Virus record (IMG/VR): IMGVR_UViG_2778261460_000005
Span: 1-37,721 of that record
Direction: 5' to 3' (one strand)
Origin: a virus
Taxonomy: Duplodnaviria; Heunggongvirae; Uroviricota; Caudoviricetes
Length of the DNA stretch: 37,721 nt
Shown here: in pieces, positions 4,780 through 37,308 of the stretch
Position numbering within the stretch: position 1 is the stretch's first letter
Layout of the letters: each line of letters begins with the position of its first letter
Translations under genes and position numbers: made by a program
The notes under the pieces: generated by a model
What the model was told of the DNA's origin: nothing
Databases searched by the model: none
Seen by the model: the letters and a program-made list of their open reading frames with translations, nothing else

Positions 4780-5561
4780 GCAGCCACCTTCTGTTCAGAG
4801 GCTTTCTGTTTCAGGAATCCAAGAGCTTTCACTGCTTCGGCCTGTGTCAGTTCTGACGATGCGCGAATGTCGCGGCGAAATATCTGGGAACAGAGCGGCA
4901 ATAAGTCGTCATCCCATGTTTTGTCCAGGGCAATCAGCAGAGTGTTAATCTCCTGCATGGTTTCATCGTTAACCGGAGTGATGTCGCGTTCCGGCTGACG
5001 TTCTGCAGTGTATGCGGTATTTTCGACAATGCGCTCGGCTTCATCCTTGTCATAGATACCAGCAAATCCGAAGGCCAGACGGGCACACTGAATCATGGCT
5101 TTATGCCGTAACATCCGTTTGGGATGCGACTGCCACGGCCCCGTGATTTCTCTGCCTTCGCGAGTTTTGAATGGTTCGCGGCGGCATTCATCCATCCATT
5201 CGGTAACGCAGATCGGATGATTACGGTCCTTGCGGTAAATCCGGCATGTACAGGATTCATTGTCCTGCTCAAAGTCCATGCCATCAAACTGCTGGTTTTC
5301 ATTGATGATGCGGGACCAGCCATCAACGCCCACCACCGGAACGATGCCGTTCTGCTTATCAGGGAAGGCGTAAATTTCTTTCGTCCACGGATTAAGGCCG
5401 TACTGGTTGGCGACGATCAACAATGCGATGAACTGCGCATCGCTGGCATCGCCTTTAAATGCTGTCTGGCGAAGAGTGGTGATCAGTTCCTGTGGGTCGA
5501 CAGAATCCATGCCGACACGTTCAGCCAGCTTCCCAGCCAGCGTTGCGAGTGCTGTACTCAT
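4776..5561 (-). CDS. bet: Red-beta single-strand annealing protein
   Basis: 261 aa, [66 protein letters not shown]. This is lambda Bet. Confidence 0.97.
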
Positions 5562-6897: not shown

Positions 6898-7452
6898 TTG
6901 ATGAGTATAGAAATGGATCTACTCGTTATTCTCGGACGAGTGTTCAGTAATGAACCTCTGGAGAGAACCATGTATATGATCGTTATCTGGGTTGGACTTC
7001 TGCTTTTAAGCCCAGATAACTGGCCTGAATATGTTAATGAGAGAATCGGTATTCCTCATGTGTGGCATGTTTTCGTCTTTGCTCTTGCATTTTCGCTAGC
7101 AATTAATGTGCATCGATTATCAGCTATTGCCAGCGCCAGATATAAGCGATTTAAGCTAAGAAAACGCATGAAGATGCAAAACGATAAAGTGCGATCAGTA
7201 ATTCAAAACCTTACAGAAGAGCAATCTATGGTTTTGTGCGCAGCCCTTAATGAAGGCAGGAAGTATGTGGTTACATCAAAACAATTCCCATACATTAGTG
7301 AGTTGATTGAGCTTGGTGTGTTGAACAAAACTTTTTCCCGATGGAACGGGAAGCATATATTATTCCCTATTGAGGATATTTACTGGACTGAATTAGTTGC
7401 CAGCTATGATCCATATAATATTGAGATAAAGCCAAGGCCAATATCTAAGTAA
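6898..7452 (+). CDS. sieB: superinfection exclusion protein B
   Basis: 184 aa, ...MDLLVILGRVFSNEPLERTMYMIVIWVGLLLLSPDNWPEYVNERIGIPHVWHVF. Matches lambda SieB. It runs opposite to the pL operon, as in lambda. The exact start is uncertain. Confidence 0.92.
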   Translation: MMSIEMDLLVILGRVFSNEPLERTMYMIVIWVGLLLLSPDNWPEYVNERIGIPHVWHVFVFALAFSLAINVHRLSAIASARYKRFKLRKRMKMQNDKVRSVIQNLTEEQSMVLCAALNEGRKYVVTSKQFPYISELIELGVLNKTFSRWNGKHILFPIEDIYWTELVASYDPYNIEIKPRPISK

Positions 7453-7776
7453 CTAGGTAAGAGGAATCGATTTTCCCTTAATTTTCTGGCGTCCACTGCA
7501 TGTTATGCCGCGTTCGCCAGGCTTGCTGTACCATGTGCGCTGATTCTTGCGCTCAATACGTTGCAGGTTGCTTTCAATCTGTTCGTGGTATTCAGCCAGC
7601 ACTGTAAGGTCTATCGGATTTAGTGCGCTTTCTACTCGTGATTTCGGTTTGCGATTCAGCGAGAGAATAGGGCGGTTAACTGGTTTTGCGCTTACCCCAA
7701 CCAACAGGGGATTTGCTGCTTTCCATTGAGCCTGTTTCTCTGCGCGACGTTCGCGGCGGCGTGTTTGTGCATCCAT
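7453..7776 (-). CDS. N: antitermination protein N
   Basis: 107 aa from MDAQTRRRERRAEKQAQWKAANPLLVGVSAKPVNRP (arginine-rich motif). The track ORF extends 44 codons upstream of the true start. Confidence 0.95.
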   Translation of the reverse strand: MDAQTRRRERRAEKQAQWKAANPLLVGVSAKPVNRPILSLNRKPKSRVESALNPIDLTVLAEYHEQIESNLQRIERKNQRTWYSKPGERGITCSGRQKIKGKSIPLT

Positions 7777-7933
7777 CTGGATTCTCCTGTTAGTTAGCTT
7801 TGGTTGTGTGTGGGAGTCGTAGTCCTGAACGAAAACACCCCGCAATGGCACATTGGCTGCTAATCCGGATTCGCACTTCCGGCCAATGCTTCGTTTCGTA
7901 TCACACACACCAAAGCCTTCTGCTTTGAATGCT

Positions 7934-7965
7934 GCCCTTCTTCAGGGCTTAATTTTTAAGAGCAT
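7934..7965 (-). promoter_or_regulatory. nutL (boxA + boxB)
   Basis: The minus strand reads TGCTCTTAA (boxA-like), an 8-nt spacer, then GCCCTGAAGAAGGGC (boxB hairpin). It lies between pL and N. Confidence 0.9.
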
Positions 7966-8002
7966 CACCTTCATGGTGGTTAGTGCGTCCTGCTGATGTG
8001 CT

Positions 8003-8066
8003 TAGTATCACCGCTAGTGGTATTTGTGTCAACACCGCCAGAGATAATTTATCACCGCAGATGGTT
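8003..8066 (-). promoter_or_regulatory. pL promoter with operators OL1, OL2, OL3
   Basis: Three 17-bp CI operators: TATCACCGCTAGTGGTA (8006-8022), CAACACCGCCAGAGATA (8030-8046) and TATCACCGCAGATGGTT (8050-8066). On the minus strand, TTGACA is the -35 and GATACT the -10. Confidence 0.93.
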
Positions 8067-8224
8067 ATCTGTATGTTTTTTATATAGATTTATTTTTTGC
8101 AGGGTTGTGTGGCTTGGGAGGTGATCGAGAGATCAGAATTGCGTTGTTTAGTGAGTTGCACCTATTAATTTTAAAATAAATACAATTGGTTATGTGTTTT
8201 TAGGTGGGGCGATCGAGAGGCAAA

Positions 8225-8249
8225 GAAAACCCGGCTCGGTGGCCGGGTT
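8225..8249 (-). terminator. intrinsic terminator ending the immunity-region transcript (lambda t-imm-like)
   Basis: The minus strand reads ACCCGGC-CACCGA-GCCGGGT followed by TTTCTTTG. It begins 8 nt after the stop of the 285-aa ORF. The flanking sequence resembles lambda downstream of rexB, as I recall it. Confidence 0.8.
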
Positions 8250-8256
8250 GATGGGA

Positions 8257-9114
8257 TTATCGTTTATTTCTTTGATGTTTCTTTGCAGACTCAGCTTGAG
8301 TGTTTCCATACCTGCGTTTACCGCTATTGTTTTTTCCTCTAGGCTTGCCTTTTTTTCGATCTTCCCACCAGTCAGGTGCCGGGTCTGGCTCAACATGTAA
8401 AGCATCGGCAAGTCCTGATATCAAGCTGTATGACTGAACTCCATCAATGTGCTCTGACAGTGATGGGGTAACATTCTGTCTTAGTGGATCAAGAATAAAA
8501 TCAATACCTTTAATTCTGGCGTGTTTGGCGGCAGGCACAAAGTCTGAGTCCCCAGCAACAAGGACAATTACATCAACAAGTTTTTCATAAGCTAAAGTCG
8601 TGATATCCATCCCTAGCTTGATATCAACTTGTTTTTGTTTGATGTCATAGTAAAAATCATCATTTGTCAGTTCATCCCATTTTTTCGTTCCTTTCATCAG
8701 AGCATCAAGGGAGAATGTAGTTAGTTGCCATCGCTTATTATCAACAAGATTCCCTAATCTTAAGGCTGTTTTTCGAGTTTTTCTTAACTCTTCATGCAGC
8801 TCCGTTCTCAGAATATATGATTTTTCGAGTTTGAAATTCTTGCGACCAGGCGTCTTATTGCCAGGCTCAGGAAGTGGAAGGCGTGTTTGAATGTCGAGTG
8901 GTGGACAGTCATAGAAGTAAATTCTATAAAGCTCAAGCGGTTCCCTACGTTCTTGTGATTGACGTTTTCCATTAAGATGGGAAAGAACCATTGACCATAT
9001 TACTTTCATTATGCATTGCGCAGTCAGTTCATGCTCGGCGAAGTGTTTACGATGCGTAGCATGAACACGCTGCATGAAAAAACCCGCATCAATTAAAATT
9101 GCTGCTTTCTTCAT
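8257..9114 (-). CDS. NYN/LabA-like (PIN-fold) nuclease-domain protein with Lys/Arg-rich C-terminal tail; occupies the rexAB position
   Basis: 285 aa. It has the acidic motifs expected of NYN domains: AAILIDAGFF (D9), KQVDIKLGMD (D164, D170) and VLVAGDSDFVP (D189, D191). The C-terminus is WWEDRKKGKPRGKNNSGKRRYGNTQAESAKKHQRNKR. The gene is AT-rich compared with its neighbours. Confidence 0.75.
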   Translation of the reverse strand: MKKAAILIDAGFFMQRVHATHRKHFAEHELTAQCIMKVIWSMVLSHLNGKRQSQERREPLELYRIYFYDCPPLDIQTRLPLPEPGNKTPGRKNFKLEKSYILRTELHEELRKTRKTALRLGNLVDNKRWQLTTFSLDALMKGTKKWDELTNDDFYYDIKQKQVDIKLGMDITTLAYEKLVDVIVLVAGDSDFVPAAKHARIKGIDFILDPLRQNVTPSLSEHIDGVQSYSLISGLADALHVEPDPAPDWWEDRKKGKPRGKNNSGKRRYGNTQAESAKKHQRNKR

Positions 9115-9121
9115 AAGAGTC

Positions 9122-9184
9122 CCAAAAAAATAGCCCAGAGCCGTTATGCAGATATTAACAATTGTCTGCGAACGGGGCTGGGCT
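9122..9184 (-). terminator. long imperfect hairpin plus U7 tract between cI and the NYN gene (terminator or attenuator)
   Basis: Minus-strand RNA: AGCCCAGCCCCGUUCGCAGAC-loop-UCUGCAUAACGGCUCUGGGCU then AUUUUUUUGGG. The three stem segments (7+5+5 bp) pair 9132-9138/9178-9184, 9141-9145/9171-9175 and 9148-9152/9165-9169. The U-tract ends 8 nt before the ATG at 9114. Confidence 0.7.
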
Positions 9185-9194
9185 TGGTTTAATT

Positions 9195-9224
9195 AATCTA
9201 TGCCAAGTTGACTGTGCCGTCAAC
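9195..9224 (-). promoter_or_regulatory. putative sigma70 promoter for the NYN gene, overlapped by an inverted repeat
   Basis: The minus strand reads TTGACG (9223-9218), a 17-nt spacer, then TAGATT (9200-9195). A perfect inverted repeat GTTGAC-N6-GTCAAC (9207-9224) overlaps the -35. No experimental support. Confidence 0.4.
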
Positions 9225-9241
9225 ATAAAACTTACTTCCTA

Positions 9242-9958
<717 letters not shown>

Positions 9959-9965
9959 TTAAATC

Positions 9966-10029
9966 TATCACCGCAAGGGATAAATATCTAACACCGTGCG
10001 TGTTGACTACTTTACCTCTGGCGGTGATA
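9966..10029. promoter_or_regulatory. OR3-OR2-OR1 operators with divergent pRM and pR
   Basis: TATCACCGCAAGGGATA (9966-9982), TAACACCGTGCGTGTTG (9989-10005) and TACCTCTGGCGGTGATA (10013-10029), followed by the GGTTGCATGTACTAAGGAGGTTGT cro leader. Confidence 0.95.
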
Positions 10030-10046
10030 ATGGTTGCATGTACTAA

Positions 10047-10256
<210 letters not shown>

Positions 10257-10263
10257 ATAACCC

Positions 10264-10295
10264 CGCTCTTACACATTCCAGCCCTGAAAAAGGGC
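10264..10295 (+). promoter_or_regulatory. nutR (boxA CGCTCTTA + boxB GCCCTGAAAAAGGGC)
   Basis: Sequence read directly; it lies between cro and cII, as in lambda. The tR1 region follows. Confidence 0.9.
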
Positions 10296-10354
10296 ATCCA
10301 ATTAAACCACACCTATGGTGTATGCATTTATTTGCATACATTCAATCAATTGTT

Positions 10355-10397
10355 ATCTAAGGAAATACTTACATATGGTTCGTGCAAACAAACGCAA
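10355..10397 (-). promoter_or_regulatory. pRE (CII-activated promoter for repressor establishment)
   Basis: The minus strand carries the TTGC-N6-TTGC CII site (TTGCGTTTGTTTGC, 10384-10397) inside the cII 5' end, with AAGTAT as the -10 downstream. Identified from knowledge of lambda. Confidence 0.7.
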
Positions 10398-10668
10398 CGA
10401 GGCTCTACGAATCGAGAGTGCGTTGCTTAACAAAATCGCAATGCTTGGAACTGAGAAGACAGCGGAAGCTGTGGGAGTTGATAAGTCGCAGATCAGCAGG
10501 TGGAAGAGAGACTGGATTCCAAAGTTCTCAATGCTGCTTGCTGTTCTTGAATGGGGGGTCGTTGACGACGACATGGCTCGATTGGCGCGACAAGTTGCTG
10601 CGATTCTCACCAATAAAAAACGCCCGGCGGCAACCGAGCGTTCTGAACAAATCCAGATGGAGTTCTGA
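10375..10668 (+). CDS. cII: CII transcriptional activator
   Basis: 97 aa from MVRANKRNEALRIESALLNKIAMLGTEKTAEAVGVDKSQISRWKRDWIPKF. The track ORF starts 20 codons too early. Confidence 0.96.
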   Translation: MVRANKRNEALRIESALLNKIAMLGTEKTAEAVGVDKSQISRWKRDWIPKFSMLLAVLEWGVVDDDMARLARQVAAILTNKKRPAATERSEQIQMEF

Positions 10669-34325: not shown

Positions 34326-35078
34326 ATGGCAGTATCTGACCAGACCCGCAGCGGCGACCTTGCCGAAACATTCAAATCTGAACGGGAAACAACAAAGAAC
34401 CAGATCCGTGTCGCCTTGCCTGGCATTGTTCAGTCATTCGATCCCGACGCGGTGACGGCGGTTGTGCAGCCAGCTATCCGTTCGGTTGAAAAGGATAACG
34501 ACGGTAACCGCATTACCAAAAATTACCCGTTGCTGGTGGATGTGCCAGTGGTATTTCCGCGCGGCGGAGGCTGTACGTTGACTTTTCCGGTTAAAGCCGG
34601 GGATGAGTGTCTTGTCGTTTTTGCCGATCGTTGTATTGATTTCTGGTGGCAGAGCGGTGGGATACAGGAGCCGGTCGATGACAGAATGCATGATTTATCG
34701 GATGCGTTTTGTATTGCCGGTCCCCAGTCGCAGGCGAGGAAGATTAGCGGTATTAATACCAGTGCCACACAGTTGCGTAGTGACGACGGCAGCACCTATT
34801 TTGAGCTTAATCCTGATACCCGGAAAATTAAAATTGTCGCCCCGGGTGGTCTTGATGTGGTTGCCCCTCTGGCTGATTTTTCTGAGAAAGTAACCATTCA
34901 TGGCCTGTTAACCTGGATGGGGGGCATGGTGGGGTCTGTTGTTTCTGGTGTGGCTTCAAAAATCACTGGTGCTGTTGAGTTCTTGGGGAGCGTTAAGGCT
35001 AACGGCAAGCCAATCGATGATACGCACACTCATGGCGGTGTTCAGCGCGGTGGAAGCAATACCGATGGGGTAAACTGA
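34326..35078 (+). CDS. baseplate central spike (gpV / Mu gp45-like)
   Basis: 250 aa. The C-terminal DDTHTHGGVQRGGSNTDG (HxH tip motif) and the position before the W-like and J-like genes support the call. Confidence 0.7.
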   Translation: MAVSDQTRSGDLAETFKSERETTKNQIRVALPGIVQSFDPDAVTAVVQPAIRSVEKDNDGNRITKNYPLLVDVPVVFPRGGGCTLTFPVKAGDECLVVFADRCIDFWWQSGGIQEPVDDRMHDLSDAFCIAGPQSQARKISGINTSATQLRSDDGSTYFELNPDTRKIKIVAPGGLDVVAPLADFSEKVTIHGLLTWMGGMVGSVVSGVASKITGAVEFLGSVKANGKPIDDTHTHGGVQRGGSNTDGVN

Positions 35079-35431
35079 TGCGATACAGACGTGAAGACGC
35101 CGATGGCGATTACACCTTTGGCAGCGGTGATGACACCTGGCTGATTAACTCACCGGAGGCCGTGGCGCAGGCGGTAAAAACGCGATTCGAATTGTGGTAT
35201 GGGCAGTGGTTTCTCGACACCACAGAGGGGACACCGTGGATTCAGTCCGTACTCGGTAAGCAGAAGCCGGAAACCTACAACTTGGCGATCCGTAAGCGCA
35301 TCCTCGAAACGCGGGGCGTTAAATCCATTCTCTCTTTCAATACGACAGTGAACACGACGACGCGCCGCGTCCAGTTCTTCGCTGAGATCGACACTATCTA
35401 CGGAACAACGACAGTAACCAGCGAGGCATAA
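35078..35431 (+). CDS. baseplate wedge protein (gpW/gp25-position)
   Basis: 117 aa with an ATGA overlap, immediately upstream of the baseplate J-like gene. Confidence 0.55.
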   Translation: MRYRREDADGDYTFGSGDDTWLINSPEAVAQAVKTRFELWYGQWFLDTTEGTPWIQSVLGKQKPETYNLAIRKRILETRGVKSILSFNTTVNTTTRRVQFFAEIDTIYGTTTVTSEA

Positions 35432-36631
35432 ATGGCCCTCAATTTGGATACACTCGGCTTATCGGCAACGGTAACCGCTGAGGGGATCAGCGCGCCTGAT
35501 TACCAGACGATACTCGATACCCTGACAAGCTATTTCCAGCAGATTTACGGCAGTGACGCTTATCTGGAACCGGACAGCAAAGACGGCCAGATGGTGGCTC
35601 TGATGGCGCTGGCGATTCATGATGCCAATAATATGGCGATAACTGTCTACAACTGTTTTTCACCGGCAACCGGCTATGGGGCTGCACTGACCAGTAACGT
35701 GAAAATAAATGGTATTTCACGTAAAGGCGCGACGAATTCTACGGTTGATTTGCTTCTTACAGGAACTGCCGGAACAACCATCATTAATGGCAGCGTGAAA
35801 GACAGTAATAATGTGATATGGCGTTTGCCTGCTTCAGTGGTGGTCGGCGTGGATGGTACAGTGATGGTGACCGCAAAATGTTCTGTCAGTGGTGCAGTGG
35901 CGGCGCTGGCTGGAACTATCACTGAAATTAATACGCCAACCCGTGGCTGGGTTTCGGTAACCAATCCTGCTGCAGCTACTGTAGGCACTCCAGCAGAAAC
36001 TGATGCGGAGTTACGTATCCGCCAGTCGCAAAGTGTTGCGTTGCCATCAATAACCCCATTTGAAGCACTGGATGGTGCTGTTTCTAATGTTACCGGTGTA
36101 ACCCGCCACAAACTCTATGAAAACGATACTGGTTCGGAGGACGGTAACGGGTTACCGCCACACTCTGTTGCTGTAATTGTGGATGGCGGTGATGTGACGG
36201 ATATTGCTCAGGCTATCAGAGGAAATAAAGGCCAGGGGACAGCCACTCACGGTACAACATCCGTTACGGTTCCGGATAAATACGGCAATCCCCATGTAAT
36301 CAAATTCTCGCGTTCCAGTGATGTGCCTGTTTACGCCCGGATTAAATTAAAAGTTTTTACGGGTTATACCTCACAGATAGGGCAGCAGATCCAGCAGGCT
36401 ATTTCCGACTATATCAATAGTCTGATGATTGGTGATTCGGTCCTTTTAAGTCGCATTTACTCACCGGCGAATCTTGGCGTGGTGAGTGGCGGGAATGCAC
36501 GCTATTACGATATTCAGGAACTGACGATTGGGAAATCCCCGGGGGCTTTGTCGTCATCAAACATTGATATCAGATACAACGAATCTACGTCCTGTACCCC
36601 GGAAAATATCGTTATAACGGTGGAGTCATGA
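35432..36631 (+). CDS. baseplate J-like protein
   Basis: 399 aa. Size, position and the DAELRIRQSQS-type segment fit the Baseplate_J family. Confidence 0.7.
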   Translation: MALNLDTLGLSATVTAEGISAPDYQTILDTLTSYFQQIYGSDAYLEPDSKDGQMVALMALAIHDANNMAITVYNCFSPATGYGAALTSNVKINGISRKGATNSTVDLLLTGTAGTTIINGSVKDSNNVIWRLPASVVVGVDGTVMVTAKCSVSGAVAALAGTITEINTPTRGWVSVTNPAAATVGTPAETDAELRIRQSQSVALPSITPFEALDGAVSNVTGVTRHKLYENDTGSEDGNGLPPHSVAVIVDGGDVTDIAQAIRGNKGQGTATHGTTSVTVPDKYGNPHVIKFSRSSDVPVYARIKLKVFTGYTSQIGQQIQQAISDYINSLMIGDSVLLSRIYSPANLGVVSGGNARYYDIQELTIGKSPGALSSSNIDIRYNESTSCTPENIVITVES

Positions 36632-37308
36632 GCAAATACACCGAACTAATCACGAACTACCACGCCACCAAACCTAAATTTCTTGCGCATGTTGATCTGA
36701 TGACCCGGCCACTTATTGATGTTGCGGCTGCCACCAGAGGGCTGATTACTGCATTTGATATTGACTCTGCGGTTGGTGTGCAACTTGACATTCTTGGATT
36801 GTGGATCGGACGTAGCCGTGTTGTCAGCCAGCCTATCTCAGGTGTCTATTTCAGCTGGGATACCGACGGGCTTGGATATGATCAGGGGGTATGGCAGGGA
36901 CCATACGATCCTGATTCAGGATACATGTATCTCAGCGATGAAACTTATCGTGTCATTCTTAAAGCGAAGATTGCGATTAATAACTGGGACGGACGGAATG
37001 ATTCGCTTCCGGCAATTCTTGACGCGGCAACAGCAGGATCCGGGCTGCGAATGCAGATAGTCGATAACCAGGACATGACGATATCGGTCTGGGTCTTTCC
37101 TGATACTGATATTTCAGATGTATCGCGTGAGTTAATTGCGGCAATTAAACAGGGGTATCTAACAGTAAAAGCCGCCGGGGTATGGGCGGGGGGCATTGAA
37201 ACACCTTCGGTGGAAACTCCATCGGAAGGCTCTAAATTTTTTGGTTTTGATATGGATAACGAATTCATCAGTGGTTTTGATGTAGGGGCATGGGGAGTAT
37301 TACTCTGA
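36628..37308 (+). CDS. baseplate / tail-fibre attachment protein (gpI-position)
   Basis: 226 aa between the J-like and tail-fibre genes. Confidence 0.55.

Follow-up and report, generated by a model that had tools for sequence, protein, structure and literature searches.

RNA-controlled nuclease modules are a known kind of cargo on mobile elements. Type III toxin-antitoxin (TA) systems (ToxIN, CptIN, TenpIN), AbiF/RCd22 and AvcID combine a promoter, a short structured RNA, a terminator and a gene for a nuclease or other enzyme toxin; they are carried on prophages and plasmids, and the RNA motif is conserved together with the protein family. In AbiF/RCd22, a conserved 5' 'abiF motif' RNA neutralises the prophage toxin in cis and in trans, and the small RNA of AvcID decays after phage-induced transcription shut-off. 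For AvcID and ToxIN-type systems, too, a conserved 5' RNA is known to neutralise a toxin of a prophage or mobile element. We analyzed a Caudoviricetes sequence of 37,721 nt (IMG/VR record IMGVR_UViG_2778261460_000005; 'the window' denotes this whole stretch) in which the rexA and rexB genes of a lambda-type immunity region are replaced by a cassette with the same components: a promoter, a leader RNA hairpin and a gene for an NYN (PIN-like) nuclease.

The cassette differs from the systems above in its protein fold (NYN, not ToxN/AbiQ, Abi_2 or deaminase) and in its RNA, a single hairpin in which the tandem repeats of type III antitoxins are absent (none were found in window positions 8100–9400). 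It is not a member of ToxIN, CptIN or TenpIN, and by analogy it may work like them. The closest known relatives of the protein are the NYN nucleases (PF01936: MARF1, LabA-like VPA0982; Rae1/YacP, Regnase-1, KHNYN, N4BP1). Compared with these, the core of the prophage protein is ~100 residues larger, with insertions at residues ~25–60, 70–95 and 121–157, and the protein has a variable C-terminal tail, travels as mobile cargo and is accompanied by a dedicated leader RNA.

Lambda rexAB is co-transcribed with cI. The cassette shares with rexAB the slot between cI and t_imm/OL, the strand, the terminator and the lysogen-side location, but it has no sequence relation to these genes, encodes a single protein where rexAB encodes two, and brings both its own promoter and a terminator ahead of the gene. 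In BLAST comparison with lambda, window positions 6916–8249 corresponded to lambda 34500–35826 (96% identity) and positions 9238–10515 to lambda 37223–38500 (98% identity). No RexA/RexB homology was found in the interval, where the lambda match ends at 8249 and resumes at 9238 and the only family matches were NYN and phrog_5783. These breakpoints agree with an earlier note on this DNA, written from its letters alone, which had placed a single NYN gene between lambda flanks in exactly the rexAB position; the t_imm-like terminator, pL (8032->8004) and lambda cI that it named were likewise recovered by terminator and promoter scans, the open reading frame (ORF) list and alignment with lambda. The left junction lies at the rexB stop codon, directly past the t_imm hairpin common to lambda, and the right junction 4 nt past the cI stop. 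The 123 bp between cI and the NYN start (9115–9237) are cassette DNA by the BLAST borders, not lambda, and form no empty spacer: they contain a promoter-like site and a conserved hairpin/terminator (Table 1), besides which the terminator scan and folding found no terminator-like site on the minus strand between cI and NYN. A single ORF stands between cI and t_imm, and the terminator scan predicted the end of the cassette transcript at t_imm, 8 nt past the NYN stop codon. The same variable slot, the repressor–N interval of lambdoid and P22-like prophages, holds BstA and other cargo, and published work describes its use for lysogen-expressed defence genes; BstA is taken to be an unrelated protein.

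We propose that the cassette is an autonomous mobile two-part module, a ribonuclease restrained by its RNA and probably serving to exclude superinfecting phages, analogous to type III TA systems (probability roughly 0.45). The NYN fold and its acidic residues, the exact replacement of rexAB, the conserved architecture with compensatory changes and the coupling of RNA and gene were shown in the analysis; an anti-phage role is suggested by the position of the cassette.

Table 1. Features of the cassette and its borders (window coordinates; arrows give the direction of reading)
Feature	Position	Strand	Basis and remarks
Exchanged cassette (promoter, leader RNA, NYN gene)	8250..9237, 988 bp	-	Lambda breakpoints; stands for lambda 35827-37222 (rexB, rexA, cI-rexA spacer)
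NYN (PIN-like) nuclease gene, 285 aa, ATG start	8257..9114	-	ORF list; Pfam, fold
Interrupted leader hairpin, 53 nt	9132..9184 (9184-9132)	-	Fold -24.0 kcal/mol, z -5.0 against shuffles; inverted repeat I4
U7 tract, one A between it and the hairpin	9124..9130	-	Read from sequence
Weak Shine-Dalgarno-like GGGA (putative)	9120..9123	-	Read from sequence; 5 nt before ATG, directly after the U-run
Predicted sigma70-like promoter TTGACG-17-TAGATT	9195..9223 (9223->9195)	-	Promoter scan, 9/12 matches
Palindrome GTTGACGGCACAGTCAAC overlapping the -35 hexamer, possible operator	9207..9224	-	Sequence comparison
t_imm intrinsic terminator hairpin	8228..8249 (8249->8228), T-run to ~8218	-	Terminator scan; aligned with lambda t_imm
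Lambda-type cI repressor gene (context)	9242..9955	-	ORF list and lambda match

A leader hairpin coupled to the NYN gene

The leader forms an interrupted hairpin with three helices, P1 (7 bp), P2 (5 bp) and P3 (5 bp). A 2x2 internal loop separates P1 from P2, a 1x2 internal loop separates P2 from P3, and the apical loop has 12 nt, CAAUUGUUAAUA. Folded as one, the full intergenic region (146 nt) was not significantly structured (z −1.5), whereas the hairpin alone was (z −5.0). Hairpin and U7 tract end 9 nt before the NYN ATG and constitute a predicted intrinsic terminator, as is characteristic of type III TA leaders. The order promoter, hairpin, U-run, ORF recurs in six diverged loci with proteins 47–87% identical and unrelated contexts. 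We surveyed 80 loci, one genome per species; they came from the first 600 pattern matches, 589 of which were confirmed as relatives, and most loci outside Rhodanobacteraceae have the element. In most homologous loci the hairpin is followed by a U/T-run of 5 nt or more, and its size (51–57 nt) is kept across phyla. Homologues preceded by this layout come from Proteobacteria, Acidobacteria, Elusimicrobia and a Streptococcus phage; Bacteroidales probably have a variant of it.

Distant lineages (Burkholderiales, Xanthomonadales, Halomonas, Acidobacteria and Elusimicrobia) share a consensus of P1 GCCCnnGG/CCnnGGGC, the internal loop CAGUA(C/A)G ... CCGA(G/A/C)C, a variable P2 and the U-run, and the apical loop of Gammaproteobacteria retains UUGUUA(A/G). 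The internal loop of distant leaders, 5' (C/G)AGUA(A/C) opposite 3' (C)GA(G/A/C), resembles the loop-E/sarcin-ricin (bulged-G) module (e.g. L104 2919–2982, L098, L090, L088, L161 2402–2465 and L163 2419–2478); the E. coli leader has lost the loop-E-like sequence and kept the overall architecture. The Bacteroidales variant (L072, L076, L086, L087, L089, L091, L094, L097) has an extra small hairpin, identified by eye, and a conserved UCUUGAUAAU within the apical region; a covariance model of the leader matched it weakly (L072, L097, L094; E 0.001–0.8).

An alignment of 27 sequences held compensatory changes at 10/10 consensus pairs, with 94.1% of cells paired against 69.6% in shuffles and a covariation score of 0.736 against 0.268 (reached by 0/500 shuffles; slid controls ≤0.287), but its segments had been picked by demanding a 6-bp outer stem, which makes this test partly circular, and two less circular tests were therefore added. 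In 13 Gammaproteobacterial sequences, with the inner helices unconstrained by the choice of segments, helix 2 (P3) was 100% and helix 1 (P1 + P2) 96% paired, and base pairs were exchanged as C-G/U-A (7:6), A-U/G-C (9:4) and U-A/C-G (8:5). When the covariance model was run over both strands of 640 kb, its best 37 matches (E ≤ 0.0011) all lay directly upstream of an NYN start on the strand of the gene, among them three loci absent from the model seed (L061, L092, L072). Eleven weaker matches, in nine further loci, took the same position, against eight weak off-target hairpins. The match in this window spans 9124–9184 (E 7.6e-14), and the top matches in Burkholderia phage phiE202 (E 1.5e-7) and Streptococcus phage Javan85 (E 0.0024) are likewise just upstream of the NYN gene. 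Conversely, the enteric hairpin core is present in 56 viral contigs, and in 54 of them an NYN ORF (44–100% identical) begins 24–29 nt downstream. Of the other two, one is a deletion derivative and one has a solo hairpin before a tRNA gene. This solo copy (L150 3576–3608), without an NYN gene and followed by the apparent tRNA gene, also differs in its upstream promoter sequence.

RNA element and NYN gene are thus coupled near-exclusively, and the structure is conserved across phyla. A search of Rfam 15 gave no relevant match for window positions 7900–10300 at E ≤ 1 or for 10 diverse loci at E ≤ 0.1; a known Rfam family was accordingly rejected as the identity of the leader, which appears to be previously undescribed.

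The geometry of the promoter constrains how the leader could act. The −10 hexamer of the cassette ends 10 nt before the hairpin, and 25/28 loci have a sigma70-like promoter (8–11/12 matches) with the −10 box ending 7–13 nt before it. Judged from this spacing, the transcript must start within a few nucleotides of the hairpin base (predicted 1–6 nt), which leaves no sequence for an antiterminator fold. A riboswitch and attenuation controlled by a metabolite, a tRNA or a leader peptide are excluded by this promoter–hairpin anatomy, as no alternative fold is possible. What remains would be constitutive termination yielding a short RNA and rare read-through, with termination modulated, if at all, by a protein recognising the conserved loops; the co-evolving NYN protein would be the obvious candidate. 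Since pRM/pRE transcripts coming out of cI would run into the leader hairpin, the NYN gene is probably insulated from cI transcription, unlike rexAB. A TTGAC-N-GTCA palindrome occupies the same spot over the −35 hexamer in 6/28 loci and may, from its placement, be an operator; besides this window it is present in Tatumella, Yersinia, Edwardsiella, Escherichia albertii and Pseudomonas syringae and not in most others.

We hypothesize that the sigma70-type promoter fires a transcript that opens almost directly with the 53-nt hairpin, which together with U7 would double as an intrinsic terminator, leaving the ribosome-binding site and the NYN gene to be reached by read-through alone. Transcripts from the cassette promoter and from pRM/pRE would mostly stop at the hairpin, giving much short RNA and little nuclease. 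The conserved loops are a putative binding site for the NYN protein, proposed from loop conservation only, through which the RNA would restrain the nuclease, acting either in cis as an autoregulatory leader or in the manner of a type III RNA antitoxin. Such a module would be poised in the lysogen; a superinfecting phage that halts host transcription or depletes the RNA in some other way would free the nuclease, which would cut RNA and block phage growth by exclusion or abortive infection. We infer transcription start, termination, RNA–protein binding, toxicity, trigger and target alike.

The NYN protein and named defence systems

The minus-strand ORF of 285 aa listed in the earlier note exists as described, and its assignment as an NYN nuclease was borne out. 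Pfam NYN (PF01936) matched residues 158–205 with 36.8 bits against a curated cutoff of 24.2 (E 6.8e-9), the match to NCBIfam TIGR00288 (NYN) fell under its cutoff, and PHROGs placed the protein in phrog_5783 (function unknown; E 1.5e-119). The AlphaFold2 model (mean predicted local distance difference test (pLDDT) 86.9, predicted template modelling score (pTM) 0.79) has a PIN-like alpha/beta/alpha fold, and the closest structural and sequence matches are NYN domains; a sequence search of solved structures returned no match. The three acidic motifs were located where they had been read, AAILIDAGFF from residue 4 (D9), KQVDIKLGMD from residue 161 (D164, D170) and VLVAGDSDFVP from residue 184 (D189, D191), and D69 (in YFYDCPP) is a further invariant acidic residue that had been overlooked. 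Among 42 aligned homologues (41–86% identity), none of the six (D9, D69, D164, D170, D189 and D191) varies, and several Arg, Lys, His and Trp residues are likewise invariant.

The conserved core comprises residues 1 to ~250, and conservation across the 42 homologues stops near W250. The basic tail that had been noted is present here (residues ~251–285, Lys/Arg-rich, with 14 K/R and 3 D/E in the last 35 aa) and is not a property of the family: in this alignment it is lineage-specific, basic in enterics, absent in a Pseudomonas aeruginosa homologue and acidic in others. The ORF is AT-rich, as had been remarked by eye: at 40.8% GC against a window mean of 49.7%, it ranks in the lowest 2% among windows of 858 nt. 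When 5.8 billion proteins were searched, 7035 relatives emerged; among the 120 listed, nearly all are single-domain NYN proteins of ~250–295 aa, from a wide range of Gammaproteobacteria, and PF01936 was detected in all except two N-terminal fragments. On sequence and model the protein is an NYN/PIN-like nuclease of predicted metal dependence. Its nearest structural relatives indicate that it is most probably an RNase, and most likely a Mg2+/Mn2+-dependent endoribonuclease. Within the coding region, a 25-nt imperfect inverted repeat (72% complementary; window 8570–8594/8614–8638) surrounds KQVDIKLGMD and may be due to chance.

The family is annotated but uncharacterised. PADLOC-DB v2.0.0 gave no full-length match, only partial weak ones to HEC-09 (E 2e-4, residues 155–200) and to the NYN model PDLC01154 (E 1.4e-3), and returned no ToxN or Abi model; full-text literature searches (NYN with prophage defence, type III TA, RNA motifs) retrieved nothing on this family. 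The impression of the earlier note that no named defence system was recognisable therefore held. HEC-09 and DS-3 are likewise single-protein PIN/NYN-type defence candidates in Enterobacteria. HEC-09 was rejected as this family because its match is partial and weak, and DS-3 (WP_022645725.1, 340 aa), a validated DefensePredictor system described as a 'PIN domain split between N and C terminus', was rejected as a relative (BLASTP E 0.38).

Carriage by prophages and plasmids

Phage ev099 has the same arrangement of cI and NYN (99.5% identical over 7900–10300). The cassette is also 99–100% identical in prophages with two other repressors and thus stands beside three different repressors. In one of these prophages (CP027435, L002), which has an identical t_imm hairpin, an extra DUF3024 gene lies between the cassette and the different repressor. 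At the right junction there (L002 ~5017–5050), a stretch identical to the last lambda cI codons forms the end of the DUF3024 gene and looks like a recombination scar marking cassette movement. The cassette occurs in 48 records of phages converting to Shiga toxin 2a (Stx2a), and other lambda-immunity phages carry unrelated genes in the slot, e.g. hicAB.

Homologues occupy diverse positions. They lie between Q and the lysis genes, on the opposite strand, in Edwardsiella and E. albertii; adjoin the integrase in a P. syringae prophage and, beside BrnTA, in Burkholderia phage phiE202; and stand downstream of the repressor, between it and the integrase, in Streptococcus phage Javan85. In P. aeruginosa the homologue is beside HigBA on a plasmid-like element, in Pantoea near tail genes and a TA pair, and in Campylobacter on conjugative pTet plasmids (136 Campylobacter records), near the relaxase region. 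The cassette is therefore autonomous mobile cargo of lysogeny modules, prophage accessory slots and plasmids, often beside TA pairs. In an uncultured gammaproteobacterium, a tRNA gene ~400 nt upstream of the cassette (L104 2529–2601) may indicate an integration site.

Truncated alleles, chromosomal relatives and competing readings

Several observations weigh against an RNA-restrained exclusion module. Only 74/275 complete E. coli genomes with the cassette have the full gene, and ~200, mostly O157:H7, carry a truncated allele, which makes the NYN gene clearly dispensable. This allele keeps the promoter, the hairpin and the first ~116–118 codons, fused to the OL region; D164–D191 and t_imm are removed, and with them four of the six catalytic Asp residues. 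The many truncated copies may stem from one inherited event. The deletion was also seen in viral contigs L132 and L158 (genome examples H141–H157), and no diverged paralogues were detectable in E. coli at the DNA level. In Rhodanobacter, Dyella and Frateuria, a short form (~213–220 aa) is a syntenic, core-like chromosomal gene neighboured by a LysR regulator, an alcohol dehydrogenase, a pseudouridine synthase and TatD, so that the family, taken more widely, is more than a mobile weapon. The leader of the short form (L040–L082), ~100 nt upstream, has a TAGAAT/TAAAAT −10-like box with a GC-rich hairpin within ~10 nt, often with a CUAUGGG loop, and lacks the U-run. In Proteus, a homologue stands alone on the chromosome, downstream of glmS. 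HEC-09, an NYN candidate, gave no phage protection when screened, and the E. coli 'NYND' cloned in the DefensePredictor study (WP_001399740.1, 215 aa) received no DS name, its last flag in Table S6 being FALSE where validated systems have TRUE; by sequence, the relation of these proteins to the present family is weak (HEC-09) or unplaced (NYND). To these points are added the partly circular first covariation test, the fact that a hairpin with a U-run also has the appearance of a plain terminator, and the absence of any experiment on a family member from the literature searched.

The alternative that accommodates these points best is a self-limited RNase with a non-defence role (RNA turnover or processing, lysogeny maintenance, plasmid or prophage establishment), whose leader would work purely in cis, attenuating or autoregulating expression like the leaders of rnc and rne. 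The failure of HEC-09 and NYND to protect, the allele widespread in O157:H7 and the chromosomal short forms beside pseudouridine synthase and TatD support it, and the lone Proteus gene and the location near the relaxase region of pTet point the same way. Set against this, the long form with its hairpin is overwhelmingly prophage or plasmid cargo, often beside TA pairs, and it precisely replaces a known exclusion system; the DefensePredictor paper lists NYN-domain proteins among the 'predicted novel defence genes' of E. coli, and tight throttling through a constitutive terminator is in keeping with a dangerous protein. We regard a non-defence role as unlikely on balance, though as the alternative to be taken most seriously.

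The earlier note had favoured a stand-alone, one-gene nuclease effector of exclusion or abortive infection; in such a model the hairpin would be a generic terminator or insulator without any particular tie to the protein. The single ORF between cI and t_imm and the position matching rexAB agree with it, and one-protein nuclease defences without an antitoxin exist (e.g. DS-3). The conserved leader RNA, its covariation, the specificity of the covariance model and the 54/56 converse result contradict it: generic terminators would not keep their loops, a size of 51–57 nt, a fixed spacing to promoter and start codon and compensatory changes across phyla, and one covariance model would not find them almost exclusively upstream of NYN genes. 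Other contexts (Q–lysis, integrase-adjacent) moreover lack a co-oriented upstream gene to terminate. We consider this reading improbable. A flap or 5' DNA nuclease acting on incoming or replicating phage DNA is less credible still, as the best structural and sequence matches are NYN domains, Pfam detected neither the helical arch of flap endonucleases (FEN) nor their helix-3-turn-helix (H3TH) DNA-binding element, and a dedicated RNA partner suggests an RNA-binding protein. A counter-defence nuclease against host immunity RNAs (CRISPR RNA (crRNA), retron or TA RNAs) would suit carriage near the transfer origin region of conjugative plasmids and in phages of many phyla, but we give it hardly any credence, because the gene sits in the lysogeny module beside the repressor in lambdoid and Streptococcus phages and not among early lytic genes, is a core chromosomal gene in some bacteria, and showed no link to a defence system in any homologue neighbourhood examined.

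If the proposed RNA-restrained NYN RNase does act against phages, bacterial immunity would gain an effector family and a structured RNA (without an Rfam entry) that are both new, the type III TA idea would extend to a different nuclease fold with a minimal one-hairpin antitoxin, and a link would be made from bacterial defence to the antiviral NYN RNases of animals. Carried by 48 sequenced Stx2a-converting phages and many E. coli pathotypes, the gene may then shape which phages, including therapeutic ones, can grow. A bolder version, which we hold to be doubtful, would make this cassette the founding example of a new and ancient RNA–protein TA or abortive-infection class, with an NYN toxin and a self-terminating hairpin antitoxin of ~55–65 nt bearing a target-mimicking AGUA/GA loop, spread through plasmids and through the lysogeny modules of phages of Proteobacteria and Firmicutes, in parallel to the eukaryotic antiviral NYN RNases KHNYN, N4BP1 and Regnase-1; the loop-E/sarcin-ricin-like AGUA/GA internal loop of many lineages may mimic the cellular RNA target of the nuclease. 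Even if it plays no part in defence, the protein–RNA pair, whose conservation reaches from E. coli to phages of Streptococcus, makes a regulatory unit that is well defined and can be tested directly.

Annotation has obscured the gene. The RefSeq Prokaryotic Genome Annotation Pipeline (PGAP) frequently splits the intact, 100%-identical 285-aa ORF into a 117- or 146-aa 'NYN domain-containing protein' and a pseudo 'PIN domain-containing/hypothetical protein, missing C-terminus' (e.g. L002 4033–4890 (CP027435), L022 and L023), which hides it from protein-based screens; in the RefSeq record of ev099 the full gene is annotated. The split was ruled out as evidence of a frameshift, since those genomes carry the ORF uninterrupted and with 100% identity, and the 'PIN' fragment model probably derives from the truncated allele common in O157:H7.

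Beyond the cassette, a SieB-like superinfection exclusion ORF (window 6898–7452, +) is kept beside N as in lambda, and the prophage thus retains one lambda exclusion gene though rexAB is replaced. Window positions 1–25000 are a mosaic of which no phage record covers 80%; the int-to-nin part is nearest to Shigella phage SfI and phage phi458 (~98%), and the immunity region is nearest to ev099.

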